DNA of 64,000 bases from an uncultured Myxococcales bacterium. Lineage in GTDB: Bacteria; Myxococcota_A; UBA9042. Location: the NCBI GenBank assembly GCA_903896545.1, contig CAITYF010000029.1:138350-202349 (forward strand), in the 5' to 3' direction. A program made the position numbers and the translations under genes. Shown here in pieces: positions 2,593 to 63,573 of the stretch (positions are counted from its first letter, which is position 1; every line of letters starts with the position of its first letter). The notes below the pieces were generated by a model. The model ran no database searches. It was given only the letters and a program-made list of their open reading frames with translations, and had not been told where the DNA came from.

Positions 2593-2637
2593 GGCTTTGG
2601 CTTGCGCCCCGTGGAAGTGGCTGGCAGTCTGCAACGC

Positions 2638-5331: not shown

Positions 5332-5391
5332 CGTTGCTGCCGCACGAGCCTTGACCAGCCGTGACATTCGTGTATCCTGTCACGCGCCTTG

Positions 5392-16294: not shown

Positions 16295-16678
16295 ATGATC
16301 CACAAAGAGAATGTTCTGGTCATGGATTTGGACGGGACGCTCTGCCCCATCAAAAAGCCCGGCGAGCGATACGAAGACCTGCTGCCACGCGCGGACGTGT
16401 TGACCAAGCTGTTGGAATACCGGAAGAACGGCTTTTACATCATCATTCAAACCGCCAGGAACATGCGCACCTACGAGGGGAACGTCGGGAGAATTAACGC
16501 GAACACCGCGAAGTCCGTGTTCCAGTGGCTGGATCGGCACGAAATTCCGCACGATGAGGTCCACTTTGGCAAGCCGTGGTCTGGCAAGGGGGGCTTCTAC
16601 GTGGACGACAAGGCTGTTCGCCCTGACGAATTTCTCCAACTCACGCACGAAGAAATTCTTGCTTTGGTCTCCAAATGA
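16295..16678 (+). CDS. small capless HAD-superfamily phosphatase (sugar-phosphate phosphatase-like, GmhB/KdsC-type architecture)
   Basis: GGAG RBS 9 nt before ATG 16295. HAD motif I is LVMDLDGTLCP and motif II is IIIQTARN. Motifs III/IV are GKPWSGKGGFYVDDKA. At 127 aa it has no cap domain. Its stop overlaps the next gene's ATG (ATGA). Confidence 0.7.
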   Translation: MIHKENVLVMDLDGTLCPIKKPGERYEDLLPRADVLTKLLEYRKNGFYIIIQTARNMRTYEGNVGRINANTAKSVFQWLDRHEIPHDEVHFGKPWSGKGGFYVDDKAVRPDEFLQLTHEEILALVSK

Positions 16679-22664: not shown

Positions 22665-25600
22665 TCATCGAACGCATCGAACGTACAGTGAGAACGAGCC
22701 ATCATAACCGATCGTCTTCCCGTAGGTGAAGTCCGTGCGCCAGTACGACCCACCCACCGCCTTGTAGGTCGTTGCACTCCAGTAGGCTGCGAGCTGGGTG
22801 CCGAAAAACACCGTCGTGTTAATCGCGGGCCCGGTTGACGTTGTGTTGCGGTCGACAATCGAGTCGAGCTCAATCGCGCGCGGAAGCCGCCAGCCGCCAC
22901 CGGCGGTCGAGAGTCCACTGCACCGCGTGATCGCACTCGCCTGCACATAGGGAGAAACCGAAGGAGTCCGCTCCCAAACAAGCTTCGTGGCGTTGTCTGT
23001 GACGGTGCTGGCATCGGAGGTGAACCGCGTCGACGGGCTTGCCGACAACACGGAGCTTCGTACACAACGCACTCGCGCCGTGCTCGCCACGCTGAGGGTG
23101 TTGAGGACACCAGCGGCCCCCGATACCGTCCAGGCGCTTTGCGACGCGGTCTCGACCGACTGCACCGCAGTCCAATAGACGTCCGTGACCGCAACCGACT
23201 GGAAGACGCTGGATACGACCGGTCCGTACGCGGTCAGATCTCGCAGCGACGCCAGTTCAGCGAGCGACGGGAGGCGCCAGTCCGACTTGGAGGCCGTCGT
23301 CGCCGTTTTGCAGTAGGCGTTGGCCTCAGTCCACGTCTTCAGCGTGACGCCGCTGTCTTGTTTCTGCCAAGTCAGGTACGTCAACGCGTCGCCCACCGTT
23401 CCGTCACCGTTGTCGGCCAATTTCGTCGCGGGCACGTTCGGATTGTCCGTCCGGCCGCCCCAAGCCGGAAAATCCGGCGCGCACACGCAACCGGCTCCCG
23501 TCTCGACGTACGCGTAGCCATTCGTGCAACTCGCCGGTCCCGTACACGTCAGCGTAAACGTGCTCACCACGCCCGCGCCACACACCCCCGCCGTACACGT
23601 CCCCGTCGCGCACGCCGCCCCATCGCTCAGGTTCACGTGCTTGCACCCACTCGCGGGGTCGCAGCTGTCCGTCGTGCAGCCATTGCCGTCGTCGCAATTC
23701 ACGCCCGTGCCCACGCAAGCGCCGCCGGTACACGTGTCGCCGGACGTACACGCGCTGCTGTCATCACACGCGGCCGCAAGATTCGCGTGCGTGCAGCCCG
23801 TCGTGCTGTCGCAGGAATCGCTCGTGCAGACCTGATTGTCGCTGCAGTTGACCGCGTTGCCGGTACAGACGCCGCTGACGCACGTGTCACCCGTCGTGCA
23901 CTTGCTGCCGTCGTCACACGAAACCACCACGTTGGTCTGCACGCAACCCAGCACTTTGTCGCAGCTGTCGCTCGTGCACGGGTTACCGTCATTGCAAAAC
24001 GCGGTCGCTCCTTTGCACGTGCCCTGCCCGCACATGTCACCGTTCGTGCACGCGTTGCCGTCGTCGCACGGAGCCGAGGTGTACGTGAAAATACAGCCCG
24101 CGACCTTGTCGCAGGTGTCTGCCGTGCACAGGTTGAAGTCGTTGCAAATGGCCGCCGTGCCGCCGCAAGCGCCGTTCGCGCAGGCGTCGTTGAACGTGCA
24201 AGCGTCGTTGTCATTGCACGCCGCCGTGTTGTTGCTGTGACTGCACGCGCCGCCGACGAGGCACGTGTCCGTCGTACACGGGTTGCCATCGTTGCAGCCG
24301 CTGCTGGTGACGGTGTACACGCAGCCCTTGACCACGTCGCAGCTGTCCGTCGTACAGACGTTGTTGTCGTCGCAGACCTTGTTGGTGCCCACGCAGCCGC
24401 CGCCCGTGCAAGTTTCCCCGGCCGTGCACGCGTTGTTGTCGTTGCACGCCAAGGCGTTGTCCACATGCGTGCAGCCTGCCTTGCTGCAGCTGTCCTCAGT
24501 GCAGAAGTTGCCGTCGTCGCAGATCATCGCCGTACCGGCGCAGAGACCAAGCTTGCAAAAGTCGCCCGTCGTACACGCGTCGCCGTCGTTGCAGTTCAGG
24601 TTGTTGAAAGAGTGCCCGCAGCCATCAATCGCGTCGCAGCTGTCGGTCGTGCACGGGTTGCCGTCATTGCACGCCGCCGAGTTCGCCGCAAAAACACAGC
24701 CTGATCCGCCGTCGCAGCCGTCGCTTGTGCACACGTTGCCGTCGTCACACGTCAGGGCTGCGCCCGCGCACGCGCCGTTCTGACAGGTGTCTCCGGTCGT
24801 ACACGCGTCACCGTCATCGCAACTCGCGCTGGTCTTGGCGTGAACGCAGCCGATGGTTATTTGGCAGCTATCCGCGGTGCACGCGTTGCCATCGTCGCAG
24901 TTGGTGGTCTGTCCGCTGCAACTGCCGCTGGCGCACTTGTCCGCGCTCGTGCAGGCGTTGCCGTCGTTGCAGCTGATTGTGTTGTTGCTGTGCACGCAGC
25001 CCGCGCCGGCGATGCACGCGTCGTTGGTGCACGGGTTGGCGTCGTCGCAGTTGGTCAGGCTGCCGATGCAGCCCCCGTCCGTGCACGTGTCGCCAGTCGT
25101 GCAGGCGTTGCCGTCGCTGCAGGCTGCGGTGCTGTTGGCGTACGCGCAGCCAGTCGCCGGGTTGCAGGTGTCGTCGGTGCAGGTGTTGCCGTCGTCGCAA
25201 GGCAGCGCTTGTCCCTGACAGCCGCCGCCCAAGCACACGTCGCCCACCGTGCAGGAGTTGCCGTCGTTGCACAGCGCTGTTGTGTTGGCATGGACGCAGC
25301 CTAGACTCGGCTGGCAGCTGTCCATCGTGCAGATGTTCGCGTCATCGCACGTGATACCACTGCCGACGCAGCCGCCGGCGACGCACGTGTCCGCGCCGGT
25401 GCACGCGTTGCCGTCAAAACAAGGTGCCGTCGCGTTGCTGTGGCTGCAGCCCTGGGTGCCAGAACACGTGTCGTTGGTGCACGCGTTGCCGTCGTCACAG
25501 GAAACTGGCGCGCCGTTGCAGGTTCCCAAGGCGCAACTGTCGCCCGTCGTGCACGCGTTGCCGTCGACGCACGCCAGCGTGTTGGCCGCGTGTCCGCACC

Positions 25601-26678
25601 CCGCGATGCCCAGGCACGTGTCGGTCGTGCACACGTTGTCATCGTCACATGACGTGTTGTCGATCTGCCCGTTGCAGTCGTCGTCCTTCGCGTTGCAGAC
25701 CTCGACGGCACCTGGGTGCACGTACGGACTCTTGTCATCGCAGTCCGTCGTTTCTGTGACGTAACCGGGCGGCGCGACGCAGCCCTGAGCGCTCACCTTC
25801 GCATTGCCAAAGCCGTCGCCGTCGGCGTCCTGGAACCAGGTCGCGGCAACGCCTTCATCGGTTTGGCCGTCGCAGTTGTCGTCCAAGCCGTTGCAGGTTT
25901 CCGGTTGTGCCCCGGTGCCGGTACACGCGCTCAAGCCGTCCAGCGTGCACTTGCGCGTACCTGGACACGCGCCGGCACTATTCTTGACCAGACACGTTGT
26001 GCTCGCGCCGTCAAACGTCGCCAGTTCCGAACAACTGCACTCGCCGGTCACCAACACGCACTGCTTGCCCGCGCCTTTCTCGCCCTGAACGGCTTTGCAG
26101 TCGTAGCCCGACGGGCACTCGTTTGTGCTGTTGCAGCCGCCGCCACAAAAGCGCCCGGCGGCGCCGTAGTCGATGCAGAGCGACCCACCGTTGACCTTGC
26201 CGCATTCTGCGTCCGTCACGCACGGGCGACAGAGCGCGACCGACGTCGGCAAGCAGATGAAGGACGTGTCCGTGCTGCCGGTTACCTGGGCGCACTTGAA
26301 GCCGCCCGGACAGCAGTCGACGCACGTCTGCGTGCAGATCTTGCCATTCGCCGAATCGACGCAATAGCCGCTCTGACAATCCGCCGCGGCAGCGCACGTT
26401 GCGCCGGATTCGCCTTTGGCTGGCTGAGTGGGAAAATCACAAGACGTCGTCACCGAATCCGTGGACACCGCGTCAGAAGCCGCCGCATCGCCCTGGCCCG
26501 CTGTGTCCTTGTCTCCCCCGGCAGTGTCGCCTTTCGCGTTCGCCGCGTCCGTCCCACCGATTTGCGAGTCGAACGTCACGTTGACGTCCACGCCTGTTCC
26601 AGCGCCGTCTTCCGCTTTGGGGCTACTACACGCCGCAAGCCCCCAAACAACAGCGACGAGGACAAACAGATGGCGCAT
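22665..26678 (-). CDS. giant secreted lipoprotein: about 19 myxobacterial Cys-rich repeats (CxDGNxCTxDxC) plus two C-terminal DUF1566 (Lcl-C-like) domains
   Basis: The true start is the internal Met at 26678 (complement CAT at 26676-78), giving MRHLFVLVAVVWGLAACSS with a lipobox. The ORF track's longer 5' extension has no signal peptide. Repeats such as ALPCDDGNTCTDDTCNPATGCAYANSTAACSDGNACTTGDTCTDGGC recur. The C-terminus has DALTYLTWQKQ...WTEANAYC...DWRLPSLAELASL and a second TKLVWERTP...GGGWRLPRAIELDSIV copy. Length is 1337 aa. Confidence 0.8.
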   Translation of the reverse strand: MRHLFVLVAVVWGLAACSSPKAEDGAGTGVDVNVTFDSQIGGTDAANAKGDTAGGDKDTAGQGDAAASDAVSTDSVTTSCDFPTQPAKGESGATCAAAADCQSGYCVDSANGKICTQTCVDCCPGGFKCAQVTGSTDTSFICLPTSVALCRPCVTDAECGKVNGGSLCIDYGAAGRFCGGGCNSTNECPSGYDCKAVQGEKGAGKQCVLVTGECSCSELATFDGASTTCLVKNSAGACPGTRKCTLDGLSACTGTGAQPETCNGLDDNCDGQTDEGVAATWFQDADGDGFGNAKVSAQGCVAPPGYVTETTDCDDKSPYVHPGAVEVCNAKDDDCNGQIDNTSCDDDNVCTTDTCLGIAGCGHAANTLACVDGNACTTGDSCALGTCNGAPVSCDDGNACTNDTCSGTQGCSHSNATAPCFDGNACTGADTCVAGGCVGSGITCDDANICTMDSCQPSLGCVHANTTALCNDGNSCTVGDVCLGGGCQGQALPCDDGNTCTDDTCNPATGCAYANSTAACSDGNACTTGDTCTDGGCIGSLTNCDDANPCTNDACIAGAGCVHSNNTISCNDGNACTSADKCASGSCSGQTTNCDDGNACTADSCQITIGCVHAKTSASCDDGDACTTGDTCQNGACAGAALTCDDGNVCTSDGCDGGSGCVFAANSAACNDGNPCTTDSCDAIDGCGHSFNNLNCNDGDACTTGDFCKLGLCAGTAMICDDGNFCTEDSCSKAGCTHVDNALACNDNNACTAGETCTGGGCVGTNKVCDDNNVCTTDSCDVVKGCVYTVTSSGCNDGNPCTTDTCLVGGACSHSNNTAACNDNDACTFNDACANGACGGTAAICNDFNLCTADTCDKVAGCIFTYTSAPCDDGNACTNGDMCGQGTCKGATAFCNDGNPCTSDSCDKVLGCVQTNVVVSCDDGSKCTTGDTCVSGVCTGNAVNCSDNQVCTSDSCDSTTGCTHANLAAACDDSSACTSGDTCTGGACVGTGVNCDDGNGCTTDSCDPASGCKHVNLSDGAACATGTCTAGVCGAGVVSTFTLTCTGPASCTNGYAYVETGAGCVCAPDFPAWGGRTDNPNVPATKLADNGDGTVGDALTYLTWQKQDSGVTLKTWTEANAYCKTATTASKSDWRLPSLAELASLRDLTAYGPVVSSVFQSVAVTDVYWTAVQSVETASQSAWTVSGAAGVLNTLSVASTARVRCVRSSVLSASPSTRFTSDASTVTDNATKLVWERTPSVSPYVQASAITRCSGLSTAGGGWRLPRAIELDSIVDRNTTSTGPAINTTVFFGTQLAAYWSATTYKAVGGSYWRTDFTYGKTIGYDGSFSLYVRCVR
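23650..25800. repeat. nucleotide-level tandem repeat tract (about 110-120 bp units) encoding the Cys-rich repeats
   Basis: Recurrent GC-rich units (for example GTGCACGCGTTGCCGTCGTCGCA, the complement of TGCGACGACGGCAACGCGTGCAC). Related tracts occur at 57.6-59.2 kb and 61.3-62.8 kb. Confidence 0.7.
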
Positions 26679-26845
26679 CCAGCATTCCTCCGGAGCAGAG
26701 CCAAGCGACTCGTGCGATGTCGCTACGATGGCAAAAATGCGTTTGGGTTTCAACGGCGGAATCACGCAATCACCGAGCGCGTTCCAGTCGTCTGGCAGCG
26801 GATCCAGCCGCGACGGGCGAACGGCCGCGCGTGGCGGAATCGGAC

Positions 26846-27448
26846 CTACGGAAGCGTGTCCGACTTGCTGTCGCTGCCCGTTCCGTCGGCCTTGGGCTGG
26901 CAGGAAAACGCCGCGTTCATGGCGCACTGGAAGTAGTCCTGGAAGATTTTTGCGCCAATTGGGTCCGCCTTCAGCGGCGCGCCGCAAGCGTCCTGACAAG
27001 CCTGGTCGCTGTTGCACTTGCCGAGGCACACGAACGCGTTGGTGCACGTCGCGTTGCCCTTGCACGCGGCGGTTTCCTTGGCACAGACGGCGTCCACGCA
27101 CGCCGAGGAATTGTCGCCGGTGTCCTTGCTGCCGCTGACCGTGTCGTTGACGACGACAACTGGATTCGCAGCGCACGACGCCTCCGTCTTGGAGGTGACG
27201 ACGCAATGCGTGCCGGCTCCGCACGCCGTTCCCGCGGTCCACGTGGCCGGAGAAACGTCGGTCGGGCAGTTCACAATCGAACTCGTCGTGGTGCCAGGCT
27301 CCGTGTAGCAGCCAACCGGCGTGTTCGCCGCGACGCACGGGTTGCCGGGCGCGCCGCCGGGAACGGGATTACCGGAATTCGTCGTGCTGCCGCACGCGGT
27401 CGCGAGGATCGCGCACGCCACAAGGAAAAACTGCTTCAACGCGGTCAT
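26846..27448 (-). CDS. small Cys-rich secreted lipoprotein
   Basis: Internal Met at 27448 gives MTALKQFFLVACAILATACGS (lipobox). The mature protein of about 180 aa has roughly 22 Cys. Confidence 0.6.
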   Translation of the reverse strand: MTALKQFFLVACAILATACGSTTNSGNPVPGGAPGNPCVAANTPVGCYTEPGTTTSSIVNCPTDVSPATWTAGTACGAGTHCVVTSKTEASCAANPVVVVNDTVSGSKDTGDNSSACVDAVCAKETAACKGNATCTNAFVCLGKCNSDQACQDACGAPLKADPIGAKIFQDYFQCAMNAAFSCQPKADGTGSDSKSDTLP

Positions 27449-33960: not shown

Positions 33961-34662
33961 GTGGTTCGCTTGTTCGGCAAATTCTGGTGGCTCGGTTGCG
34001 TCTTTTCGCTCGCGGCGTGCGACGACACAGCGGTCGGCGGTCCCAGCGCGGACATCCTGAGCAGCAATGCCGACGCGACGGACGACGTCAGCATCCTGGG
34101 CGGCAAGGACGCGATCGAGGACATCAGCCCGGAGAAAGCCGCTTGTGTCGGATCGGCGCTCGAGCCCGGCATGTCAGTATTTGATTACCAGTGCAAATTT
34201 CTGGACCAATGCGAGCACATGGCCAGCTGCTACTGTGGCGACGGCTGTAGCGACACGAAGATCAAGTGCGACGACCAGTACTGCCCCAATGCCCACCCCA
34301 AGTGCTACTGCGGCGACGGTTGCGATGCCAAGCTCGTGATGTGCCCGAACTACATCTGCAACGCCTCGCCGTCCACGGGCTGTGAAGCGCACGACGACTG
34401 CGTCTTCAACAACGCCAAAGCGCCTGACTGGTGCGGCTGCCAAAAGATGCCGGACCACTGCTCGTGTGGCAGCGATTGCCTGCCCAACGTCGCACTCTGT
34501 GACGCCAAAGTCTGCAAGAACTATCCGACGAAAGGTTGCTCGCCGGAGCTCAATGACAAGAAGGAAATCAAGACCTACACGAACTGCTACTGCGAACGCT
34601 GCGGCACACTGGCGCACACGCCGCGCTGCTATTTCCTGCAATGCCCCGGAGCCAAGCCCTGA
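33961..34662 (+). CDS. Cys-rich secreted lipoprotein (CYCGDGC repeats), translationally coupled to crcB
   Basis: GTG 33961 with signal and lipobox FSLAAC. Repeats CYCGDGCSDTKIKCDDQYCPN and CYCGDGCDAKLVMCPNYICN are present. The stop overlaps the crcB ATG (TGATG at 34660-64). Confidence 0.6.
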   Translation: MVRLFGKFWWLGCVFSLAACDDTAVGGPSADILSSNADATDDVSILGGKDAIEDISPEKAACVGSALEPGMSVFDYQCKFLDQCEHMASCYCGDGCSDTKIKCDDQYCPNAHPKCYCGDGCDAKLVMCPNYICNASPSTGCEAHDDCVFNNAKAPDWCGCQKMPDHCSCGSDCLPNVALCDAKVCKNYPTKGCSPELNDKKEIKTYTNCYCERCGTLAHTPRCYFLQCPGAKP

Positions 34663-35033
34663 TGCGGCTGGCGCTCATCATCGCGCTGGGGTCCGCGCTT
34701 GGCGGGCTGCTGCGGTACCTCGTGGCCCTCGGATGGCGCGGGCAAGTCGTCGCGGGTCTGCCGCTGGCGACGTTGACCGTGAACATCGTCGGTTCGGCCA
34801 TCTTTGGCCTTCTCGCGTCGCGTCACGCGCACGCGCCGCTCCAGGATTCTGTGTACTTCGGCCTGACCACCGGCATTCTCGGCGGGTTCACGACCTACTC
34901 CAGCTTCAACGGCGAAATGTTGCGGATGCTCGTCGAAGGCAACGCCTGGCGCGCCGCGCTCTACGCGGGCGTCACAGGGACGACTTGCCTGCTCGGTGGC
35001 GGCCTCGGCTGGTGGCTGGGAGCGCTGAAGTAG
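34662..35033 (+). CDS. crcB: fluoride ion channel CrcB/FluC
   Basis: 124 aa with four TM segments and the hallmark GGFTTYSSF motif. Confidence 0.8.
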   Translation: MRLALIIALGSALGGLLRYLVALGWRGQVVAGLPLATLTVNIVGSAIFGLLASRHAHAPLQDSVYFGLTTGILGGFTTYSSFNGEMLRMLVEGNAWRAALYAGVTGTTCLLGGGLGWWLGALK

Positions 35034-53253: not shown

Positions 53254-55836
53254 CTACGAGAGCGGCGGCCCAAACAGCGCGCTGTACAAGTCGTGCGAGA
53301 GCTCCCGCGCCGTGCTGTAACGCGCCGCAGCCTGCTTCGCCATCGCCTTTTCAATCACCGGCACAATCGCCGCGGGCAGCGACGGATTGAACATGCGCGG
53401 ATCCGGCACGGGCTCCACCGCGTGCGCCGCGAACACGTTGCCGTCCTGAAACGGCAGAACGCCCGTCACCAGCCTGAACACCATCACGCCAAGCGCGTAA
53501 ATGTCCGCGCGGTGGTCGACGCGACCGCCCATGAGCTGCTCTGGCGCCATGTAATGCGGCGTTCCAATCAGCACCGACTGCTCGCCAAAACCTTCGTCGG
53601 CCACGCGCGCCAGACCAAAATCGAACAACTTGACGACGCCATCGGCCGCCACCAACACGTTGTCCGGCTTGATGTCACGGTGCAGGATCTGCTGCGCGTG
53701 GGCATGGTCAAGCGCTTCGCAGAGCTGCGCGATGACCGCGTAGAAGAACTGCCAATCGCGGATCGGCTCGCGCACCGGGAGATACGCGGAAAGCGGCACG
53801 CCATCGACGTATTCCATCGCGTAGTACAGCACGTCATCGACCTTGCCGATGTCGTAAATGTGCACGATGTTCGGGTGATTCAGACTCGCCGCCAGCTTCA
53901 CTTCCCGCAGGAAATACTTGCGCGCCAGCTCGGTGGGCATCGCGGAGTGCGCGAGGAATTTCAGCACGACCAAACGATTGAGGTGCAAGTCCACGGCGCG
54001 GAACGCCACGCCGTTGCCACCCGTGCCGATGTGCTCCAGGTTGCCGTAGCGCTCAGCGAGGCCTGGCGGAATCATCTCCGGCCACTCGCCCTCAATTGGC
54101 CAAGTTTGCGCGTGCAGCAGCGGGCCAATCGCTTGGATTTCGCGCGCATACGCCACCGTGCTCTCGGTCATCACGCGCGGGACTTCCTGACCGGCGTCCA
54201 CCATTTCCATCGGCTTGCCGCCACGTGACTCGGCGATCTCCACGTGGCCGCGCGTCGGCGGTCGCGGCTTCGGCGCTGACGCCTTGGGCGCATACAGGTC
54301 CGCGGAAAAGACCACGTCCGCGTGCATCTCGTCAGTCTCGCGCGAGACAGCCGCCTTGTGGGCCGCGACGTCGTGATCGGTGTAGGAAGAGGTGTTCGTC
54401 GTCGTCGGTTCCGCGGCACGCGCCGGCTTGCGCGGCGGATTTGTCGCGACCAACGCGTGGTCGCCGGTGCTCACCTTGGCCAGAAACGAGCGACTCAAGC
54501 CGGACGTCGTGCGCGGTCCCGACCGCAGCGTCTGCGTCTTCTCACCCGCCGGCGACTGATCCGCGGACTTCTTGCGGGCCGACTTGGCGTCGAGCGAATT
54601 CGGCGCAGCGGGCGGCGCGGCGGGCGCGCTGTCAAATCCGCCAGACAGGCGTCGCATCACGGTATTGCGTGTCATGCGCTGGACGGGCTCAGGTTCTGGG
54701 ATGAATTCCGGGAAATAGTCGTCATCTGGCGGCGGTTCCAGACTCGCCGATTCGGGCGCGCTAAAGCCAAAATCGTCATTTTCCGGTTCGTACGGCGGCA
54801 CTTCCGCGGACACGCGAAACGACGCGGCGGGCACCGTTGTCTCGCGCACGGTCACGCTGGGCGACCGATCCGCCATCAGCCGCGCGATCGACACTTCAAT
54901 CGTCCGGGCGTCGTCGTCGTTTTCCTCTGGATCCGTGTTCTCTTCAGGCGCGGGCTCAGACGCGTCAAAATCCGACCAATCAAAGGCGGGATCGTCAAAC
55001 GCCCCGACGGAAATCGGCTTGCCCGGTTCACTCCGCTGCTCAGGCGTGGCGCCGCCTGCCAACTCGCGGGCCAGCACCGCAGCAAGCGCCACGGAAAGCT
55101 CAACCGTCTCCGCTTCGGTCTCGATCGGCGCACCGGCAGCCGAGGCGTCCATCGCCGTGTCGGCCCACGACTGGTCCGGTAGCTCGTCGCCAATCGCGAG
55201 GCCAGCAAACGGCGCGAGTTGCTCGTCGTGAAACCGCTGCGCGGCGACCTCTTGGGTCGGTGGATGGCCGGCGTCGTCGTCCGCGGTCGTGTCACGCACC
55301 CACGCTGCGTTGTAACTCGGCGCGTGGGGCTCGTCGCGATCGGCTTCCCAATCATCCACGAGTGCAACGACCTGAGCGACAGCAGGCTGGGGCGCCGGCG
55401 GAAGGACGATGCGCGCCGGCGGCTCCGGTTCATCGTCCAGAATCAGGTCGCCAAAGCGAAAGCGACCGCCCAGGCCGTCCGCGACGACGCGAAAACGCGG
55501 CAGGCGCAGCACATCGCGCAGCACCTGTTCAAGCGCCAAGCGGCTCGTCGGACAGACCGCCTCGCTCCATATCACGGAAAATCCGGGCTGACCGCCGCTT
55601 CCCCGCTGGACCAAGTAGCGCACTTTCGCGTGCAACATCACCGTCGGTCCGTCCGGTCCGTGCGGCTTCAATTCCACTTCAACCGGCGCGTTCAACGCGA
55701 CTTCCGTGCGCGTCGCCAAGAACGCGCCACCCGCGCTGACGTTGGTGCAGACGACCTCAAACGACGCCATGGACGTATGCGCCATCGCGACGAGCAAAAT
55801 CGGGAAACGCGGGTGTTGTCGTCGATCGTCGTACAT
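53254..55836 (-). CDS. PilZ-domain / Ser-Thr protein kinase fusion with a roughly 450-aa disordered acidic/Pro-rich linker
   Basis: N-terminal PilZ signature (RRQHPRFPI...VCTNVSAGGAFL). The C-terminal Hanks kinase has IGTGGNGVAF (G-loop), VLK, HRDIKPDNVL, DFGLA and GTPHYMAPE. Start chosen at Met 55836; the ORF opens at 55956. Confidence 0.8.
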   Translation of the reverse strand: MYDDRRQHPRFPILLVAMAHTSMASFEVVCTNVSAGGAFLATRTEVALNAPVEVELKPHGPDGPTVMLHAKVRYLVQRGSGGQPGFSVIWSEAVCPTSRLALEQVLRDVLRLPRFRVVADGLGGRFRFGDLILDDEPEPPARIVLPPAPQPAVAQVVALVDDWEADRDEPHAPSYNAAWVRDTTADDDAGHPPTQEVAAQRFHDEQLAPFAGLAIGDELPDQSWADTAMDASAAGAPIETEAETVELSVALAAVLARELAGGATPEQRSEPGKPISVGAFDDPAFDWSDFDASEPAPEENTDPEENDDDARTIEVSIARLMADRSPSVTVRETTVPAASFRVSAEVPPYEPENDDFGFSAPESASLEPPPDDDYFPEFIPEPEPVQRMTRNTVMRRLSGGFDSAPAAPPAAPNSLDAKSARKKSADQSPAGEKTQTLRSGPRTTSGLSRSFLAKVSTGDHALVATNPPRKPARAAEPTTTNTSSYTDHDVAAHKAAVSRETDEMHADVVFSADLYAPKASAPKPRPPTRGHVEIAESRGGKPMEMVDAGQEVPRVMTESTVAYAREIQAIGPLLHAQTWPIEGEWPEMIPPGLAERYGNLEHIGTGGNGVAFRAVDLHLNRLVVLKFLAHSAMPTELARKYFLREVKLAASLNHPNIVHIYDIGKVDDVLYYAMEYVDGVPLSAYLPVREPIRDWQFFYAVIAQLCEALDHAHAQQILHRDIKPDNVLVAADGVVKLFDFGLARVADEGFGEQSVLIGTPHYMAPEQLMGGRVDHRADIYALGVMVFRLVTGVLPFQDGNVFAAHAVEPVPDPRMFNPSLPAAIVPVIEKAMAKQAAARYSTARELSHDLYSALFGPPLS

Positions 55837-56009
55837 TGCGATCAGGTCCTCACGGCAAAACGCCAAACGCGGCGCGCGTCCAAACCAAAGCGATTGTGCC
55901 GCTAGGTCGCGTGCGAAACAACCCCACTCTTCTACCCGCCGCACATTTCCTCGCACGGACCGTTGACCCTACCGTCCGTCCGGGTAACGCTTGCCGCGGA
56001 GGAGGGGCT

Positions 56010-57062
56010 TTGGCGCTACATCGATTCTCAGCTATCCGCGGACATCGCGCGCAAATTGGCGCTCTGGAACGCCTCGTGCTGCGAGGTACGCCGGGACATG
56101 CCTACCTTTTTGAAGGTCCGGAAGGCGTAGGCAAGGACGTCGTTGCGCAGGCACTTCTCGCGCGCCTTGCGTGCACAAGCCCGGATCCGGCGACCGCCGA
56201 ACCGTGTGGACATTGCCCGTCTTGTGCGGCTTTTGCCCGCGGCGAACATCCCGACGTGACGCGCCTGGAGCGCGACGGGGCCACGATCAAGATCGATCAG
56301 GTTCGCAACGCGTTGAAGCGGCTACGCTACGAGCCCGTGGTTGGCTCAATCAAGGGACTGATCGTCGAGTCTGCAGAGCTGCTGCGCGAAGAAGCTGCCA
56401 ACGCGATGCTGAAGACGCTGGAGGAGCCGTCGGGACAGACCGTTTTCATCCTTGTGACTTCCAAGCCCCAGTTGCTTTTGGACACGATCCGCTCGCGCTG
56501 CCAAGTGCTGCGTTTTGCCCCGCTTTCGCCCGACGACGTTGCAGCCCTGCTGGTCGCGGAAGGGCACGCGGCGGAAATGGCCGGGCCAGCATCGGCGCTG
56601 GCGGAAGGGTCGATGACGCTGGGGCGGACCCTCTGTGACGCGGCACGCATGGCTTTTGTCGATCACGTCGCTGAGTACGCGCTGCGGCTGGGTCTGGAAG
56701 CGCCGAGTGAAGCCGCGGCGTTTGTGGAAGGTCTGGGCGGTCGGCTGATCGGCATCCGGCCGGATGAAGGCGACGCCAAGGGCAAAGACCTCGTGCGCGC
56801 TGACTTGCCGTGGATTTTGGAGATTCTGCGCAGCGTCTGGCGAGACGCACTGATGGTCGCGACCGGCATGCCCGCGGAATCCCTGCCCCACGCCCGCTCT
56901 GCCACCGGGCTGCGGGCGCTTGCGGCACGCGTGGAGCCCGGTAAGTTGGTCGCTGCGATCGACGCAACGCAACGATTGGAAGACAAACTGGTGCTCAATC
57001 CAAATCCAAAGCTCGCGATGACAGCGGTTTTGGTTGAAGCGGCCGTGCATTTGCGCGCTTGA
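56010..57062 (+). CDS. holB: DNA polymerase III delta' subunit
   Basis: RGH...HAYLFEGPEGVGKDV (Walker A-like), Zn module CGHCPSCAAF, and sensor SRCQVLRF. The TTG start at 56010 is uncertain. The stop at 57062 was verified. Confidence 0.7.
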   Translation: MALHRFSAIRGHRAQIGALERLVLRGTPGHAYLFEGPEGVGKDVVAQALLARLACTSPDPATAEPCGHCPSCAAFARGEHPDVTRLERDGATIKIDQVRNALKRLRYEPVVGSIKGLIVESAELLREEAANAMLKTLEEPSGQTVFILVTSKPQLLLDTIRSRCQVLRFAPLSPDDVAALLVAEGHAAEMAGPASALAEGSMTLGRTLCDAARMAFVDHVAEYALRLGLEAPSEAAAFVEGLGGRLIGIRPDEGDAKGKDLVRADLPWILEILRSVWRDALMVATGMPAESLPHARSATGLRALAARVEPGKLVAAIDATQRLEDKLVLNPNPKLAMTAVLVEAAVHLRA

Positions 57063-57227: not shown

Positions 57228-60200
57228 GTGAAGGCATACAATCAGATGTTGCCGCGCTTGCGGCGCGTTCAGCACACCTTGGCGCTCGTCGCGATGGCAA
57301 CTTTCGTCGCGCTCGCGGGATGCGGCGAGGACAATGCTGTCGCCGGGTCCGGAACGCCGGACACGTCCAACGTCGGCACCGATGCAGCATTGACCGACAC
57401 GCCAACGGACACGCCGGCGGGCAGCGATGCCGAGCCGACCGATGTGGCAGCCACCGACGTCTTCGACGCGCTGGACGTTGTGGACGTCGCGGATGACGTG
57501 GCGCCGGACGTAGCCCCCGACGTCGCGCCGGACATCGACACGGGACCGACGTGTGCGAGCGATCACTGCCTCATCGACCTGGTTTGCTATGACAACGGCA
57601 CGGTCAACCCGACCAACCCGTGTCAGCGCTGCTTTGCCTTGGCGGATCAGGTGAACTGGACTTCCGACGACACCGCCAAGTGCGACGACGGCAGCACGTG
57701 CACGCCCGACGATCACTGCGCAGACGGCAAATGCGTCGGCACGCCGACCAAGGACTGCGGCGACGGCAACGCGTGCACCAAGGACGACTGCACGGCGACC
57801 GGCGGTTGCGTCCACACCAACCTGAGCGACGCGGCACCTTGTGACGACGGCAACGGCTGCACGACGGGCGATGTCTGCGTGAACTCCGTGTGCCTGCCTG
57901 GCCAAGTGACGACCGATTGCGACGACAAAGACAGCTGCACCATCGACACGTGCGACGTGGCGCTCGGCTGCGAACACACGGCGACCGGCAGCGGTCCGTG
58001 TGACGACGGCAACGCCTGCACCGGCAACGACGCGTGCGGCGCAAACGGCTGCGCGGGCAGCGCGCTCGACTGCGACGACGGCAGCGTCTGCACGATCGAT
58101 TCGTGCGACCTGTTCAAGGGCTGCGTGCACGACGACGGCATCGCCAAGTTCTGCAGCGACCTGAACCCGTGCACGGACGAAACGTGCGATGCGCAACTCG
58201 GTTGCGTCTATCCGTACAACACCAAGCCGTGCGACGACGGCGACTTCTGCACGACGGACGACCACTGCGACAACGGCAAGTGCCTCGTCACCAAGACCGC
58301 GTGCGACGACAGCAACCCGTGCACGAACGACGCGTGCAGCCCGACTTCTGGCGTTTGCGTCTACCTGCCGAACACCGCGACGTGCACGGACGACGACGTC
58401 TGCACCATTGGCGACTACTGCAAGGACACGACCTGCTGGCCCGGCCAGACGCAGCAAGCGTGCGACGACGGCAATCCGTGCACGATCGACACGTGCGATG
58501 CGGCCAACGGCTGCCAGACGAGCGCGGGCCTGGGCAAGTGCGACGACGGCAACGCCTGCACCGTGGGCGACACCTGCGCCAACAAGGGCTGCTCCGGCTT
58601 GCCTTTGGACTGCGACGACAACGACGTGTGCACAATCGACTCGTGCGATCCCGCGACGGGCTGCAAGCACGACGGCTCGATCGCCGCGAATTGCACGGAC
58701 GACAACCCGTGCACCGACGAAACGTGCGATCCCAAGACCGGCTGCGTCTACCCGTTCAACACCGTACCCTGCGATGACAACAACATCTGCACCAAGACGG
58801 ACACGTGCACGTCGGGCGCCTGCCTGGGCAGCGCGGTCGACCCCAACGACAACAACCCGTGCACGGACGACGCGTGCGATAAAACGTTGGGTATCATCCA
58901 CTTGAACAACAAGTTGCCTTGCGAAGATGGCAACGTCTGCACGCTGAACGACGCATGCCTCTTTGGCGAGTGCGGCCCCGGCCCCACGCAGCTCACATGC
59001 GATGACAGCAACCCGTGCACGACGGACACCTGCGATCCGGTCGAAGGCTGCGTCTTCACGCCGAACACCGATCCTTGCGACGACGGCACGGTCTGCACCA
59101 AGGACGACACCTGCGGCAACAAGGAATGCCACGGCACGGCGATCGTCTGCGACGACGGCAACGCGTGCACGACGGACAGCTGCGACTCGGTCAAGGGTTG
59201 CGGCGCGAGCCTCATCGTGAACAAGCTGTGCCGCCCGAACATCGTCATCGACTACCCGCCGCGCGCCGCCACGATCAAGGGCGTTCTCGCCACGCCGGAG
59301 ATCACCGTCCTCGGCCACGTGACGGATGCCGCCGGTCCAATCACCAGCCTCACGGTGAACGGCACGGCGGTCACGCTCGACGCTAACGGCGCGTTCAGTT
59401 ACCCGATGTCCACGATCATCGGCGGCAACGAGATCATCGTTGTGGGCACGGACTCGTTTGGCACCACCAAGCAGATCGTGCAGTCGTACTTGTGGAGCGA
59501 TAACTACTACAAGCCGTACTGGGACCCGGTGACTGGACCGGACCACACCAAGGGCATCATCGATCCGGGCTTGGCGTACTACCTGAGCAAATCGGTCATC
59601 GACGACGGCGTGCACACGCAGCCTGCGAACGACTTGGCGACGGTGTTTGAGCAGGTGCTGGCGACGTACAAGCTGGAAACCTACATTCCGTCCTCGATTG
59701 TCGCGAGCGGCATCACGGTCTACATTTCTAATCTGAAGTACGGCAGCCCTGCCGTCGTGTTGACGCCGCAGACGGGCAGCCTGCACATGCTCGCGAAGAT
59801 CCCGAACATATCTGCGGATTTGAAGGCGACGCTGCTCATTTTCCCGGTGACTGGCAAGCTGACAGCCGATTCGCTGAACATTGAGACGGACCTCGTTCCG
59901 AGTGTGGACGCGAACCACAACGCGGTGATCGTGATGACCAACACCGTCATCTCGTTCACCAACTTCAAGGTGACCATCGCCGGTCTCAACCTGACCAGCT
60001 TGCTCAATGGCACCATCGCGAACCTCACAACGAGCTTGGTTCCGCAGCTGAAGACGGCTTTGGAGCCCGCTCTCTCCAGCGCTTTCAACGCGTTGGCGTT
60101 CAAGACGCAGTTCCAGTTGGGCAAGCTCGACGGATCGGGCAACAAGATCGCCGTGGACCTGTACAACGACTACAACAGCATCACGTGTGCAGCGGACGGC

Positions 60201-60926
60201 ATGGTTTTCATGATGCGCACCCGCGCCTCAGCGCAGGTCGATCCCGCCCTGACTACGTATGACGAATTGGGCATTCCGGCGCGCTCGCACTGTGGCGATG
60301 GCCAGCCGCAGCAGGTGAAGCTCACCAAGGTCGGCAAGATGGAGCTCGTCATCAGCGACGACGCGTTCAACGAGCTGCTCACCGCGGTGTGGAGCGGCGG
60401 TCTGCTGGAATTCCCGGTCGGCGCGTCGCTGCTGGGCAACGTCGACCTGAGCCAGTATGGCGTGAGCGATCTGGCGATGAACGTCGACGCGATGCTGCCG
60501 CCCATCATGGAAGACTGCAGCTACATCTCGCCCGTCGCGCAGATCGGCGACTTGCGGGTGTACGGTTCGCTCAAGCTCTTCGGCAAGGCGATCGACTTCA
60601 CGATGTACGCGACCTTCAAGACGGACGTCGAAGTCACCGCGAGCAACAGCGCCATCGGCATCGCCTTGAGCGGCATCAAGAGCGCGGACGTGCAGGTCGA
60701 CATCGTGCAGGACGCCATGGTCGGCTCCGAAGGCGCGCTCGCTGAACTCGTGAAGACGCAGGTGCTGGGCGCGTTGGTTGGCAAGCTGACCGGCTCTGCG
60801 CTCGGCTCGTTCCCGATTCCGGCGATTAACCTGAACATCGGCGGTGCCTCGGTTTCGCTCTCCATCGCGACCGACCAGGTTGTCCGCGTGGAAGGCAACT
60901 CCGTCGTCCAGGGCCACTTGCAGTAG
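57228..60926 (+). CDS. giant secreted lipoprotein: acidic (A/V)PDV pentapeptide linker, about 14 Cys-rich CxDGNxCTxDxC repeats, about 560-aa C-terminal Cys-poor domain
   Basis: GTG 57228 with signal and lipobox FVALAGCG. Linker DVAPDVAPDVAPDID. Repeats such as CDDGNACTGNDACGANGCAGSALDCDDGSVCTIDSCDLFKGC. The C-terminal domain is beta-rich and Cys-poor. Length is 1232 aa. Confidence 0.8.
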   Translation: MKAYNQMLPRLRRVQHTLALVAMATFVALAGCGEDNAVAGSGTPDTSNVGTDAALTDTPTDTPAGSDAEPTDVAATDVFDALDVVDVADDVAPDVAPDVAPDIDTGPTCASDHCLIDLVCYDNGTVNPTNPCQRCFALADQVNWTSDDTAKCDDGSTCTPDDHCADGKCVGTPTKDCGDGNACTKDDCTATGGCVHTNLSDAAPCDDGNGCTTGDVCVNSVCLPGQVTTDCDDKDSCTIDTCDVALGCEHTATGSGPCDDGNACTGNDACGANGCAGSALDCDDGSVCTIDSCDLFKGCVHDDGIAKFCSDLNPCTDETCDAQLGCVYPYNTKPCDDGDFCTTDDHCDNGKCLVTKTACDDSNPCTNDACSPTSGVCVYLPNTATCTDDDVCTIGDYCKDTTCWPGQTQQACDDGNPCTIDTCDAANGCQTSAGLGKCDDGNACTVGDTCANKGCSGLPLDCDDNDVCTIDSCDPATGCKHDGSIAANCTDDNPCTDETCDPKTGCVYPFNTVPCDDNNICTKTDTCTSGACLGSAVDPNDNNPCTDDACDKTLGIIHLNNKLPCEDGNVCTLNDACLFGECGPGPTQLTCDDSNPCTTDTCDPVEGCVFTPNTDPCDDGTVCTKDDTCGNKECHGTAIVCDDGNACTTDSCDSVKGCGASLIVNKLCRPNIVIDYPPRAATIKGVLATPEITVLGHVTDAAGPITSLTVNGTAVTLDANGAFSYPMSTIIGGNEIIVVGTDSFGTTKQIVQSYLWSDNYYKPYWDPVTGPDHTKGIIDPGLAYYLSKSVIDDGVHTQPANDLATVFEQVLATYKLETYIPSSIVASGITVYISNLKYGSPAVVLTPQTGSLHMLAKIPNISADLKATLLIFPVTGKLTADSLNIETDLVPSVDANHNAVIVMTNTVISFTNFKVTIAGLNLTSLLNGTIANLTTSLVPQLKTALEPALSSAFNALAFKTQFQLGKLDGSGNKIAVDLYNDYNSITCAADGMVFMMRTRASAQVDPALTTYDELGIPARSHCGDGQPQQVKLTKVGKMELVISDDAFNELLTAVWSGGLLEFPVGASLLGNVDLSQYGVSDLAMNVDAMLPPIMEDCSYISPVAQIGDLRVYGSLKLFGKAIDFTMYATFKTDVEVTASNSAIGIALSGIKSADVQVDIVQDAMVGSEGALAELVKTQVLGALVGKLTGSALGSFPIPAINLNIGGASVSLSIATDQVVRVEGNSVVQGHLQ
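57650..59225. repeat. Cys-repeat-encoding nucleotide tandem repeats (same family as 23650-25800, opposite strand)
   Basis: Recurring TGCGACGACGGCAACGCSTGCAC-type units. Confidence 0.7.
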
Positions 60927-60960: not shown

Positions 60961-63573
60961 ATGAAGACGAACATCGGTCCGAGCTCGGCGATCGCCGGGC
61001 ACAACGCGGCCAACTTGCGCGCGGCACTTTTGGCACTGTGTAGCACCGCGTTGCTCAGCGCGTGCGGCGGTGACGTCCTGCCCGCCAGCGGCGACGCGAC
61101 AACGGGCAGCGACGCGACGGACGACGCACTCGTCACCGCGGATGTGGACACGGTCGGAGCCGACGTGGCAGCGGACGTGGGCACCGACGCCATCGAGGAC
61201 ACGGGAATTGACGCCATCACCGACCAACCGGATGTTCAGCCCGACGTGGAACCCGACGTGACGCCCGACGTGGCACCCGACACTGGTCCAGGCAAATGCA
61301 CCCCGGACCAGGTCAAGGCATGCGACGACGGACTCGTTTGCACGACCGACAAGTGCACGATGCCTGGCGGCGTCTGCGCGTGGTCGATGGCGGACGGCTG
61401 GTGCTTCATCAACGGCAACTGCATCGGCGCGGGCGAGACCAAGCCGGGATCGCCGTGTTTTGTGTGTGACCCCGCAGTGAACGCCAAAGCGTGGTCACCG
61501 CTGGCTGACGGCAAGGCGTGCGACGACGGCGACTTGTGCACGTACGACGGCACCTGTCAGACCCAGATCTGCGTCTCGAAGCCCACGCCGTGCGGCGATA
61601 ACAACCCGTGCACCGAGGACAAGTGCGACAAAGTCGCCGGCTGCCTCTACCCCAACGTCGCGGTCGGCACCAAGTGCGACGACGGCAACGCGTGCACACT
61701 TGCCGACAGCTGCACCGAAGCCGCTTGTGCCGGCAAGGCCATCGTCTGCAAAGAGAACAACCCGTGCACCGACGACGCCTGTGACATCGCGACGGGCTGC
61801 ACGTACACGAACAACGAGAACCCGTGCACGGACAACGACGAGTGCACGAATGGCGACGTCTGCGCGAGCGCCGCGTGCAAAAGCGGCGTGACCAAGAACT
61901 GCGACGACGGCAACACGTGCACGTTTGACCAGTGCGTTCCGAGCTACAAGGGCGGTTGCTACCACTTGGCCAAGCAGAGCCCGTGCTGCACCGGCTTGAC
62001 CAGCGTGTGTGACGACAACAACCCGTGCACGAGCGACGACTGCGATCCGACGACGTCGGCGTGCATTTACACCAACAACAGCGCAGCGTGCGACGACAAG
62101 AACGCGTGCAGCAGCGCGGACATTTGTTCCAGCGGCGCTTGCGCGGGCTCCAGCGTGACGTGCAACGACAGTAACCCGTGCACCAACGACAGCTGCGACA
62201 CCGCCAAGGGCTGCGTCTTCACGCCCATTGCCGCCAACGCGTGTGACGACGGCAAGCCGTGCACCGATGACGCGTGCGATCCGGTCGCTGGCTGTGCGCA
62301 CTCCAACAACACCGCCGCGTGCGATGACAACGACAACTGCACCGTCGACGACGCCTGCAAGGACGGCGCGTGCGCCAGCGGCCCGGCGCGCAACTGCGAC
62401 GACGGCAACGTGTGCAGCGTGGACAAATGCATCCCGAACATCGCGGGCGGCTGCTACCACTTGGCGACCAACAGCCCCTGCTGCACCGGTCAGACCAGCA
62501 TCTGCGACGACGGCAACGCGTGCACGAACGACGACTGCGACCCGGCGACGTCGGCTTGCAAGAGCAGCAACAACACCGCGCCGTGCACTGACGGCAGCGC
62601 GTGCACAACCAACGACGCCTGCGCGGGCGGCGCGTGCAACGGCACGACGCTCAACTGCGATGACGGCAACCCGTGCACGACGGACAACTGCGACCCGAAG
62701 GTCGGCTGCGCGCACGGCAACATCGACGGCGGCACGTGCGACGACAACAACCCGTGCACGACGGCGGACGTCTGCAGCGCGGGCAAGTGCGTGGGCGCAG
62801 GCCAGTGCACCTGCACGATGACGTTCAGCAACCAGGAGAGCAAGTTCACGACGATCCAAATCGGCGATGGCGGCAAGCCAGGCGAAGGCATCGACGTGGA
62901 CAACAACCCGGCGACGTGCGCGCCGAGCAACAACTGCACGTCGGGCATCAACAACTCGTTGGGCGCGCTCGCGGGCTTGGCCAACAAGCCGCTGCAGGAC
63001 GCCGTGACCAAGGGCAGCGTGAACTTCGTGCTCGAATACCGCGACCTGAAGCAAGGCGCCATCAACCTCGGCCTCTACACCGCCAAGGTCGCAGACAGCA
63101 ACGCGGCGTGCGACTTCCAAACGCAGACGTGCGACTACAACGTCGCCACGAACCTCATCGACTACCAAAAGTGCATCCCCGTCGTGAATTTGCCCGGCAA
63201 GCTCGCGGGCAACGTCATCATCGCGGGCGGAAAAGGCACGAACTTCCCGTTCTCGCTGCCCATCAGCGGTGGCGCGGTGCTCAGCATCGTCATCTACGGC
63301 GCGCAGTTGAACGGCACCGTGACCACCGACGCGGGTGGCAACATTACGTCGTTTGACGGCATTCTCGCGGGCGCCGTGCCCAAGGCAACGCTCGCGTCTG
63401 CCATCGACGCCCTGCCCGACGGTTCGCTGCCGATTCCGAAGGACTCGCTCAAGGCGATTCTGGATTCAACCGTGGAAGCCGACATCGATTCGAACGGCGA
63501 TGGCACGCTGGACGCCGCGTCCATCGGCCTCAAGCTGCACGGCATTCAGGCCAAGATCGTCGGCACCTATTGA
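60961..63573 (+). CDS. giant secreted lipoprotein, paralog of the upstream gene: PDV-type acidic linker, about 13 Cys-rich repeats, distinct roughly 250-aa C-terminal domain
   Basis: GAGG RBS before ATG 60961. Lipobox LLSACGG. Linker DVQPDVEPDVTPDVAPDTGP. Repeats CDDGNTCTFDQC, CDDNNPCTSDDCDPTTSAC and similar. A Cys-poor C-terminal domain follows. Length is 870 aa. Confidence 0.8.
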   Translation: MKTNIGPSSAIAGHNAANLRAALLALCSTALLSACGGDVLPASGDATTGSDATDDALVTADVDTVGADVAADVGTDAIEDTGIDAITDQPDVQPDVEPDVTPDVAPDTGPGKCTPDQVKACDDGLVCTTDKCTMPGGVCAWSMADGWCFINGNCIGAGETKPGSPCFVCDPAVNAKAWSPLADGKACDDGDLCTYDGTCQTQICVSKPTPCGDNNPCTEDKCDKVAGCLYPNVAVGTKCDDGNACTLADSCTEAACAGKAIVCKENNPCTDDACDIATGCTYTNNENPCTDNDECTNGDVCASAACKSGVTKNCDDGNTCTFDQCVPSYKGGCYHLAKQSPCCTGLTSVCDDNNPCTSDDCDPTTSACIYTNNSAACDDKNACSSADICSSGACAGSSVTCNDSNPCTNDSCDTAKGCVFTPIAANACDDGKPCTDDACDPVAGCAHSNNTAACDDNDNCTVDDACKDGACASGPARNCDDGNVCSVDKCIPNIAGGCYHLATNSPCCTGQTSICDDGNACTNDDCDPATSACKSSNNTAPCTDGSACTTNDACAGGACNGTTLNCDDGNPCTTDNCDPKVGCAHGNIDGGTCDDNNPCTTADVCSAGKCVGAGQCTCTMTFSNQESKFTTIQIGDGGKPGEGIDVDNNPATCAPSNNCTSGINNSLGALAGLANKPLQDAVTKGSVNFVLEYRDLKQGAINLGLYTAKVADSNAACDFQTQTCDYNVATNLIDYQKCIPVVNLPGKLAGNVIIAGGKGTNFPFSLPISGGAVLSIVIYGAQLNGTVTTDAGGNITSFDGILAGAVPKATLASAIDALPDGSLPIPKDSLKAILDSTVEADIDSNGDGTLDAASIGLKLHGIQAKIVGTY
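61320..62810. repeat. Cys-repeat-encoding nucleotide tandem repeats
   Basis: Same unit family as 57650-59225. Confidence 0.7.

Follow-up and report, generated by a model that had tools for sequence, protein, structure and literature searches.

The closest precedent for a protein that joins a PilZ domain to a Hanks-type Ser/Thr kinase is Pkn1 of Myxococcus xanthus (MXAN_1467), which has been implicated in development as part of biology related to cyclic di-GMP (c-di-GMP) (PMC8316039, PMC8844925). In Pkn1 the kinase is N-terminal and the PilZ domain C-terminal, and this PilZ domain lacks the conserved motifs and is predicted not to bind the nucleotide (PMC8316039, PMC8844925). Fusions of an MshEN domain to a Ser/Thr kinase have been noted by comparative genomics and taken to suggest c-di-GMP control of phosphorylation (PMC5013675). 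They likewise combine a c-di-GMP receptor with a Ser/Thr kinase, but the receptor fold is MshEN rather than PilZ and the evidence is bioinformatic only; no experimental test of these fusions was found in the literature searched. Beyond Pkn1 and the MshEN fusions, the open-access literature yielded nothing on a c-di-GMP-regulated Hanks kinase or on a kinase whose PilZ domain is N-terminal. Here we describe a gene from an uncultured freshwater Myxococcales bacterium that encodes an N-terminal PilZ domain, a long disordered tether, and a C-terminal Hanks-type kinase. It lies in a 64,000-nucleotide stretch of contig CAITYF010000029.1, which is referred to below as the window. Like Pkn1, the protein is a single myxobacterial polypeptide with both a PilZ domain and a Hanks-type kinase; compared with the published description of Pkn1, which is the only basis of this comparison, it has the reverse domain order, intact PilZ motifs, and a motif-bearing tether of about 465 residues. 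The combination of PilZ and kinase is thus already known, and what is new is the N-terminal position of PilZ, the integrity of its motifs, and the very long tether with motifs of its own.

The gene is a single open reading frame (ORF) on the minus strand, and the PilZ-kinase family to which it belongs is without annotation in all sources examined. The longest ORF (53254-55956) opens with GTG and would encode 900 aa, and the ATG at 55836 gives 860 aa. This ATG has a GAGGA 10 nt upstream and agrees with the N-termini of all orthologues (MYDDRRQHPRF...). GC content by codon position is 0.70/0.48/0.77. ORFs that overlap the linker on the plus strand were rejected as Arg-rich shadow ORFs of high-GC DNA, because GC at third codon positions (GC3) fits the minus-strand frame. 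No hydrophobic segment was found anywhere in the 860-aa protein, which is therefore soluble, and the product is most likely a cytoplasmic signaling protein of three parts. A preliminary description, made from the sequence alone, had read the gene, without naming its strand, as a PilZ domain followed by about 450 aa of disorder and a Hanks kinase, and this layout is borne out by Pfam, by the charge-hydropathy plot, and by the catalytic motifs. The coordinates of all features are collected in Table 1.

Residues 4 to 82 match the Pfam PilZ family (PF07238; E = 1.9e-8; 35.0 bits against a cut-off of 22.5; profile positions 1 to 79), as do 76 of 87 relatives of the N-domain. An AlphaFold2 model built from 7 orthologous N-domains has a predicted local distance difference test (pLDDT) score of 87.6, with strands between residues 15 and 95, then a helix (99-109) and one additional hairpin (118-127). 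The N-terminal loop (residues 1 to 11), which carries R5-R6-Q-H-P-R10, is disordered in the model. The top Foldseek neighbors of this model in the PDB are nearly all PilZ proteins (probability of about 1; E = 0.01-0.1; TM-score, 0.45-0.55) and include BcsA, PlzA, PA0012, the MapZ-like 4xrn, MotI, YcgR, Alg44, and PlzD, as well as 3kyg. PDB sequence searches with the single N-domain sequence or a 7-sequence profile gave chance matches only and no PilZ entries, and a profile from the full-length alignment of 87 sequences was contaminated by kinase columns. A profile of 24 N-domains was used instead; it matched MotI/YpfA of Bacillus subtilis (5vx6) with an E value of 9.8e-5, placing RRkhpR over RRQYVR and NvSagG over NISAGG. 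The same profile also matches Xanthomonas PilZ proteins that do not bind the nucleotide (3dsg and 4f48; E of about 1e-3).

The refined description of canonical PilZ domains comprises RxxxRhxh, [D/N]hSxxG, and a charged C-terminal helix (bioRxiv 10.1101/814665), and the window PilZ fits it with R-QHP-R-F-P-I, NVSAGG, and a C-terminal helix. The preliminary description had given the first motif as RRxHPRF, which is exact (RRQHPRF). Its second motif, D.S.GGAFL, was right in S.GGAFL and wrong in the Asp, since the protein reads NVSAGGAFL, with an Asn that [D/N]hSxxG allows. It had also held that its reading would fall if careful alignment showed the RxxxR and DxSxxG residues to be lacking; both motifs align with those of MotI. 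Judged by its motifs and predicted fold, the N-domain is a canonical PilZ domain with both c-di-GMP motifs intact. Its likeness is to the canonical c-di-GMP-binding PilZ domains (MotI/DgrA 5vx6, MapZ/PA4608 of Pseudomonas aeruginosa, BcsA, Alg44, and YcgR), with MotI the best solved sequence match and this group supplying the top structural matches, but it is only 10 to 20% identical to them and has the extra, conserved β-hairpin at 118-127. Where canonical PilZ domains act on flagellar, pilus, glycosyltransferase, or methyltransferase partners, the output here is a Hanks kinase on a disordered tether. A scan of the protein against NCBIfam returned only kinase matches below threshold and a weak match of the N-domain to TIGR02266, the PilZ-like paralogous domain of Myxococcus known as gmx (residues 14 to 105; E = 2e-6). 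With 27.9 bits against 68.7, this score is far below the cut-off, and the window PilZ is therefore not a member of that family.

At the other end of the protein, residues 599 to 848 match Pkinase (PF00069) with an E value of 9.4e-48 (163.3 bits against a cut-off of 31.7; profile positions 3 to 260 of 263), and the best solved match is PknB of Mycobacterium tuberculosis (E = 3e-46, over the full domain). All catalytic motifs are present: GTGGNG (604-609), K626, the αC glutamate E645, HRD (719-721), DFG (739-741), and APE (764-766). Their residues are invariant in the family alignments except for N608 in the Gly-rich loop and I722 beside HRD. The activation loop is acidic (ADEGFGEQS) and 3 residues shorter than that of PknB, with Ser754 near the position of PknB T171/T173. 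On these sequence features the kinase is catalytically complete and active-looking. It also opens with the same L-x-x-R-Y as PknB/Stk1; the window protein differs from those kinases in having neither a transmembrane segment nor PASTA domains and in carrying its kinase at the C terminus rather than the N terminus. The NCBIfam equivalog for the Stk1/PknB PASTA kinases, NF033483, scored 261 bits against a cut-off of 450 and aligned over profile positions 5 to 271 of 563, which leaves the protein outside that group.

Intact single ORFs were found in at least 7 orthologues from uncultured Myxococcales metagenome-assembled genomes (MAGs). Among full-length metagenome proteins, P0001 to P0007 are near-identical to the window protein or 56 to 78% identical, and P0008 is distant. 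Five species-level uncultured Myxococcales MAGs, from freshwater-type bins, carry an uninterrupted ORF of 854 to 905 aa; across 7 independent assemblies the uninterrupted ORFs span 854 to 984 aa, and the indels are always in frame. Against six close orthologues, ratios of nonsynonymous to synonymous substitution (dN/dS), which are pairwise and approximate because dS is close to saturation, were 0.12-0.20 for PilZ, 0.29-0.44 for the linker, 0.04-0.14 for the juxta-kinase segment, and 0.07-0.11 for the kinase. They are below 1 in every segment; values for L007 are higher, with a linker value of 0.65. The contig of L007 (CAMDBH010000050.1) is titled as a Klebsiella pneumoniae MAG yet encodes P0008, and the bin is probably mislabeled or contaminated. 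The low ratio of PilZ, set beside those of linker and kinase, indicates that the sensor domain is maintained. High-GC genomes do give long shadow ORFs, several of which overlap this linker on the plus strand, and one MAG (L012) has a frameshift-broken gene, so that an assembly or frameshift join or a spurious bridging ORF had to be considered as the source of the fusion. The uninterrupted ORFs with in-frame indels only, the conserved motifs within the linker, the linker dN/dS, the fit of GC3 to the minus-strand frame, and the recurrence of the fusion in at least 18 further clusters effectively refute such an artefact. By these comparative measures, all parts of the protein are translated and constrained, and the fusion is real and selected.

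The recurrence came to light in an exhaustive search of representative sequences with the N-domain profile, which gave 324 representatives at E ≤ 1e-3, of which 149 were listed; a word-indexed protein search with the same profile had returned one fragment only. Among the 149 listed, at least 18 further proteins (clusters at 50% identity) have a C-terminal kinase in the same layout, matching the family kinase profile with E values of 1e-74 to 1e-161. Their total lengths are 446 to 1063 aa and their linkers about 40 to 670 aa. Most of the other N-domain relatives examined consist of PilZ and a Pro-rich tail in which no domain was recognized. The kinase-bearing set examined comprises 26 sequences, which fall into 23 distinct clusters at 50% identity. 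In 24 of the 26, a WPxG[VI]P motif that is specific to the family stands ahead of the kinase, and RxxxR was found by regular expression in 23, with two of the remaining three beginning after the motif. The window clade and five others retain the second motif, [D/N]xSxxG, and many members have [DN]xGPGG, in which Ser is replaced by Gly.

Several relatives bear on how the fusion is distributed. L010 holds tandem PilZ-kinase paralogues (6926-8383 and 8642-10153), one with the canonical NASPGG and the other with DIGPAG, which has the Ser-to-Gly change; they are a natural pair for asking whether the motif Ser matters. In L012 (3802-5807), an apparent split into separate PilZ and kinase genes was rejected, because another frame reads through EATVAYQR...WPVGVPTSLANRY; this is one fused gene broken by a frameshift, which is either an assembly error or a pseudogene. 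A further apparent split version, P0274, has an uncalled 1.7-kb gap upstream. In the Bradymonadia MAG L009 (6001-7936), a stand-alone PilZ protein of 114 aa (RRQHPRF and DVSVGG) is encoded about 44 nt upstream of a membrane Ser/Thr kinase gene. That kinase belongs to a different subfamily (34% identity, without WPxGVP), and the gene pair is an independent association of PilZ with a kinase.

Within the PilZ domain, none of the 7 orthologues whose N terminus is complete departs from R5, R6, or R10, a count that omits P0004, the called product of which begins after the motif; in the 24-sequence alignment R6 and R10 are invariant and R5 nearly so. N32, G36, and G37 are invariant in all 8 orthologues and S34 in 7, with Gly in P0008. 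No part of the domain is better conserved than the helix (99-110), the distant P0008 included, and A101, L102, V105, L106, D108, and L110 are invariant across the 8 orthologues while the linker drifts. Galperin and Chou regard the C-terminal helix of PilZ as a likely interaction surface. On the strength of the motifs, we consider it somewhat probable that the domain binds c-di-GMP, whereas control of kinase output by c-di-GMP through PilZ appears, on the same sequence evidence, about evenly balanced between true and false; the c-di-GMP-gated phosphorylation of the preliminary description is in this sense plausible, as a reading of the motifs.

The main rival is that PilZ serves as a nucleotide-independent adaptor or localization module, as in PlpA, Pkn1, and the Xanthomonas PilZ proteins, tethering the kinase to a partner via its C-terminal helix, with no direct part for c-di-GMP. 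PlpA is reported not to bind despite intact motifs, so that motifs alone are no proof of binding, and Pkn1 and several M. xanthus PilZ proteins function without them. In P0008 the residues of the helix have held better than the motif Ser, a pattern that would suit an adaptor, as would the Ser-to-Gly change in many family members and the match of the profile to nonbinding Xanthomonas proteins. In the window clade, on the other hand, both motifs are strictly conserved while neighboring residues vary, and RxxxR is kept in nearly all members with a full N terminus; we know of no role for the RxxxR loop beyond nucleotide binding. We regard a pure adaptor as rather unlikely. Other observations weigh against c-di-GMP control. 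At least 14 of the 26 family sequences, P0008 among them, have Gly for the motif Ser or otherwise lack the motif, and canonical binding may therefore not be needed by the family as a whole. The same subfamily also has kinase-only paralogues: in L011, a 657-aa PilZ-kinase (1600-3573) lies 1.4 kb from a 322-aa kinase-only paralogue (5001-5969) that keeps WPEGIP. Finally, the window ORFs scanned included no gene for a diguanylate cyclase or a phosphodiesterase.

The stretch between the two domains (residues 128 to 592; 465 aa) contains no Pfam domain, is placed with disordered sequences by the Uversky charge-hydropathy plot, and is mostly disordered. Its conservation is 0.43, compared with 0.74 to 0.87 for the domains, and in-frame indels are abundant. 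In a full-length AlphaFold2 model from 8 sequences, the pLDDT of the linker is below 50 nearly throughout; this is weak evidence for disorder, because the model as a whole is poor (pLDDT of 45, from a shallow alignment, with the kinase itself badly modeled). The preliminary description was right to call the linker disordered, but it is not plain disorder, given its conserved short motifs and charge pattern. Nor does it contain the short repeats that had been claimed: these come down to two copies of the 4-mer PEEN (at residues 297 and 303), peptides of 5 residues or longer do not recur, the DNA at the site gave no tandem repeat in Tandem Repeats Finder, and the stretch is not conserved in the orthologues.

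What we infer from these features concerns c-di-GMP binding, the direction of information flow, and the mode of coupling. In the mechanism that we favor, c-di-GMP would bind the loop and barrel of PilZ. The RRxxxR form of the motif makes an intercalated dimer the probable ligand; in work on PP4397 and VCA0042-L135R, such motifs are reportedly associated with binding of an intercalated dimer. Bound nucleotide would order the N-terminal loop and change the surface around the C-terminal PilZ helix (99-110), and this altered surface, through which the signal would be read out, may change what the kinase does. Transfer of the signal through a rigid linker is ruled out by a tether that is disordered and, depending on the family member, about 40 to 670 residues long. 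Coupling would instead have to take the form of tethered docking or release, on the kinase and juxta-kinase segment, of either PilZ or a linker motif, of c-di-GMP-dependent self-association that promotes trans-autophosphorylation, or of c-di-GMP-dependent recruitment of the kinase to a partner. Our fullest proposal, which we advance tentatively and hold with somewhat less than even confidence, is that the family represents the first Hanks-type Ser/Thr kinases to be directly controlled by c-di-GMP via a canonical PilZ domain, that coupling across the long disordered tether occurs by c-di-GMP-dependent docking or release of PilZ or a linker motif, or by c-di-GMP-bridged self-association, and that phosphorylated tether motifs form a platform for downstream readers.

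The tether falls into blocks of opposite charge. The first (residues 128 to 385) is acidic and contains AFDDPAFDWSDF (279-290), DDFGF (354-358), and DDDYFPEF (371-378). A strong acidic block is specific to the window clade, in which the charge of the N-terminal half of the linker is kept (-38 to -53) and its sequence is not; it is absent from the distant members. These conserved acidic-aromatic motifs (about 54703-55002) resemble docking motifs of the type found in the C-terminal tail of SSB. A gene with SSB-tail-like motifs here adjoins holB, which is probably coincidence. AlphaFold2 predicts short helices in the linker at 243-260, 309-322, 390-398, and 559-563. They lie mostly on or beside conserved stretches, the last two within computed conserved islands, as would be expected for recognition motifs in a disordered region.

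In the basic, Ser/Thr-rich block that follows, TRNTVMRRLSGG and RPTSSLTRSFLAKVS are nearly invariant. T389, R390, and V393 to S398 of TRNTVMRRLSGG are invariant in the 8 orthologues, including the distant P0008, and among the family sequences examined the motif is confined to the window clade, P0008, and P0122; it is a candidate phosphorylation site or a candidate docking or pseudosubstrate motif. Further along the block, T444 is invariant, and the positions of S445, S448, S450, and S456 hold Ser or Thr in no fewer than 7 of the 8 orthologues. Such an abundance of conserved Ser/Thr residues close to basic residues would also fit a reverse flow of information, in which the kinase autophosphorylates the linker or PilZ and thereby controls binding of c-di-GMP or of a partner, with PilZ as the output. 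Phosphorylation of the basic block beside the huge acidic one could shift intramolecular electrostatics. The sequence itself favors neither direction of flow. We found no precedent for reverse flow in the open-access literature searched and consider it improbable. Most multidomain PilZ proteins described so far use PilZ for input, although this is background and not a test.

Nearer the kinase, the juxta-kinase segment (residues 541 to 592) has a dN/dS as low as that of the kinase itself. Within it, E558, S559, T560, A562, Y563, and R565 are invariant in the clade, and E-S-T-V-A-Y-x-R recurs in most long-linker members and also in the frameshifted L012. T560 is a candidate autophosphorylation site or phospho-Thr docking site, and the residues T389/S398, T444 to S456, and T560 are together probable autophosphorylation or docking sites. 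Once phosphorylated, the invariant T560-V-A-Y, with its aromatic residue at +3, would be a plausible ligand of a forkhead-associated (FHA) domain by the general specificity of such domains, and the protein encoded at 73-1416 does contain one (E = 1.1e-15). The preliminary description had named this protein as the natural partner of the kinase. The FHA domain is real, but the partnership is unsupported: the gene lies 52 kb away, beside genes for a GH3 hydrolase and an S41 peptidase, and in two independent contexts (the P0002 and P0006 contigs) the orthologues have no FHA gene within about 8 kb. FHA proteins and kinases are numerous in myxobacteria, so that presence in one 64-kb stretch says little, and a dedicated reader of this kinase at 73-1416 is very unlikely. 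That gene is followed on the same strand by those for a GH3 glycosidase (1444-2592) and a PDZ/S41 peptidase (2602-4815), a trio of cell-envelope appearance that has no relation to the kinase locus.

The window is a housekeeping region of the chromosome, with rimP-nusA-infB-truB, then pnp, and glmS. A run of mdh-sdhCAB-yaeQ and an M20 peptidase gene converges on the kinase gene, and holB diverges from it; the divergent holB arrangement is found with the same spacing in the P0002 and P0006 contigs. In these two contigs the side with holB and the genes for Cys-rich proteins with Dicty_CTDC repeats is conserved, and the opposite side only in the closer one. No phosphatase, FHA, GGDEF, EAL, or HD-GYP gene was found near the PilZ-kinase gene, which looks monocistronic and without an operon partner. 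The stop of the M20 peptidase gene (53250) and the stop codon of the kinase gene (53254-53256) are 3 nt apart, which leaves no room for a terminator, and one orthologous contig has them overlapping by 4 nt. A promoter and terminator scan gave nothing above shuffled expectation, and no sigma-70-like promoter scored.

The following observations concern the wider window. The Dicty_CTDC proteins at 57228-60926 and 60961-63573 stay beside holB and the PilZ-kinase gene in two orthologous contigs. Plus-strand ORFs at 23518-25764 are shadows of the minus-strand Dicty_CTDC gene. An Rfam scan found tRNA-Cys (5393-5465) as the only RNA gene in the window and no c-di-GMP riboswitch. A gene for the fluoride channel CrcB is present at 34557-35033, and no fluoride riboswitch reached the Rfam gathering threshold in the window. 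Directly after truB is a gene for a DUF6929/DUF6910 protein (12740-13690), and a 574-aa protein with a weak match to APH-type phosphotransferases is encoded at 16627-18351.

Table 1. Features of the PilZ-kinase gene and of its surroundings, in window coordinates
Feature	Position	Strand	Description and basis
Whole gene	53254..55836	-	860 codons and stop (stop codon 53254-53256); soluble PilZ-linker-kinase protein; ORF list and orthologue N-termini
PilZ domain, residues 1-127	55456..55836	-	N-terminal loop, six-strand barrel, helix 99-109, hairpin 118-127; Pfam, AlphaFold2, Foldseek, and MotI profile match
RRQHPR, residues 5-10	55807..55824	-	RxxxR motif with an extra Arg ahead, then F-P-I (RxxxRhxh pattern); translation
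NVSAGG, residues 32-37	55726..55743	-	[D/N]hSxxG motif at the end of strand 2, h = V33; translation
Acidic disordered block, residues 128-385	54682..55455	-	Net charge -48; composition and Uversky plot
PEENTDPEEN	54919..54948	-	Two copies of PEEN, at residues 297 and 303
Basic Ser/Thr-rich block, residues 386-480	54397..54681	-	Net charge +10, 23% Ser+Thr; holds the conserved RTTSGLSRSFLAKVS
TRNTVMRRLSGG, residues 389-400	54637..54672	-	Most conserved linker motif; predicted helix 390-398
Juxta-kinase segment, residues 541-592	54061..54216	-	MVDAGQEVPRVMTESTVAY...LLHAQT.P...WPEMIPPG; conservation 0.79
ESTVAY, residues 558-563	54148..54165	-	Thr560, acidic residue at -2, Tyr at +3
Hanks-type Ser/Thr kinase, residues 593-860	53257..54060	-	Ends at the C terminus; Pfam, PknB match, and catalytic motifs
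Divergent intergenic region shared with holB (DNA polymerase III delta')	55837..56010	.	About 175 bp; holB start inferred
Cys-rich Dicty_CTDC-repeat protein	22665-27338	-	1557 aa; C-terminal Lcl_C domain
Cys-rich Dicty_CTDC-repeat protein	57228-60926	+	1232 aa
Cys-rich Dicty_CTDC-repeat protein	60961-63573	+	870 aa

Myxobacteria possess Ser/Thr kinases in very large numbers, and their c-di-GMP network is elaborate. The open-access literature searched contains no demonstration of a Hanks kinase that responds to c-di-GMP, and the only PilZ-kinase described is Pkn1. The window gene is a good and well-defined candidate for a c-di-GMP-switched kinase, in an organism that is uncultured and with a central claim that rests on motif conservation. 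Because both motifs are kept under purifying selection, the family offers a clean biochemical test of direct control by c-di-GMP. Its tethers of about 40 to 670 residues, together with the canonical and Ser-to-Gly variants of the second motif, also make it a natural series for asking how a signal passes without a rigid connector. If c-di-GMP control is borne out, these proteins would be a direct wire between the two largest signaling systems of the myxobacteria.

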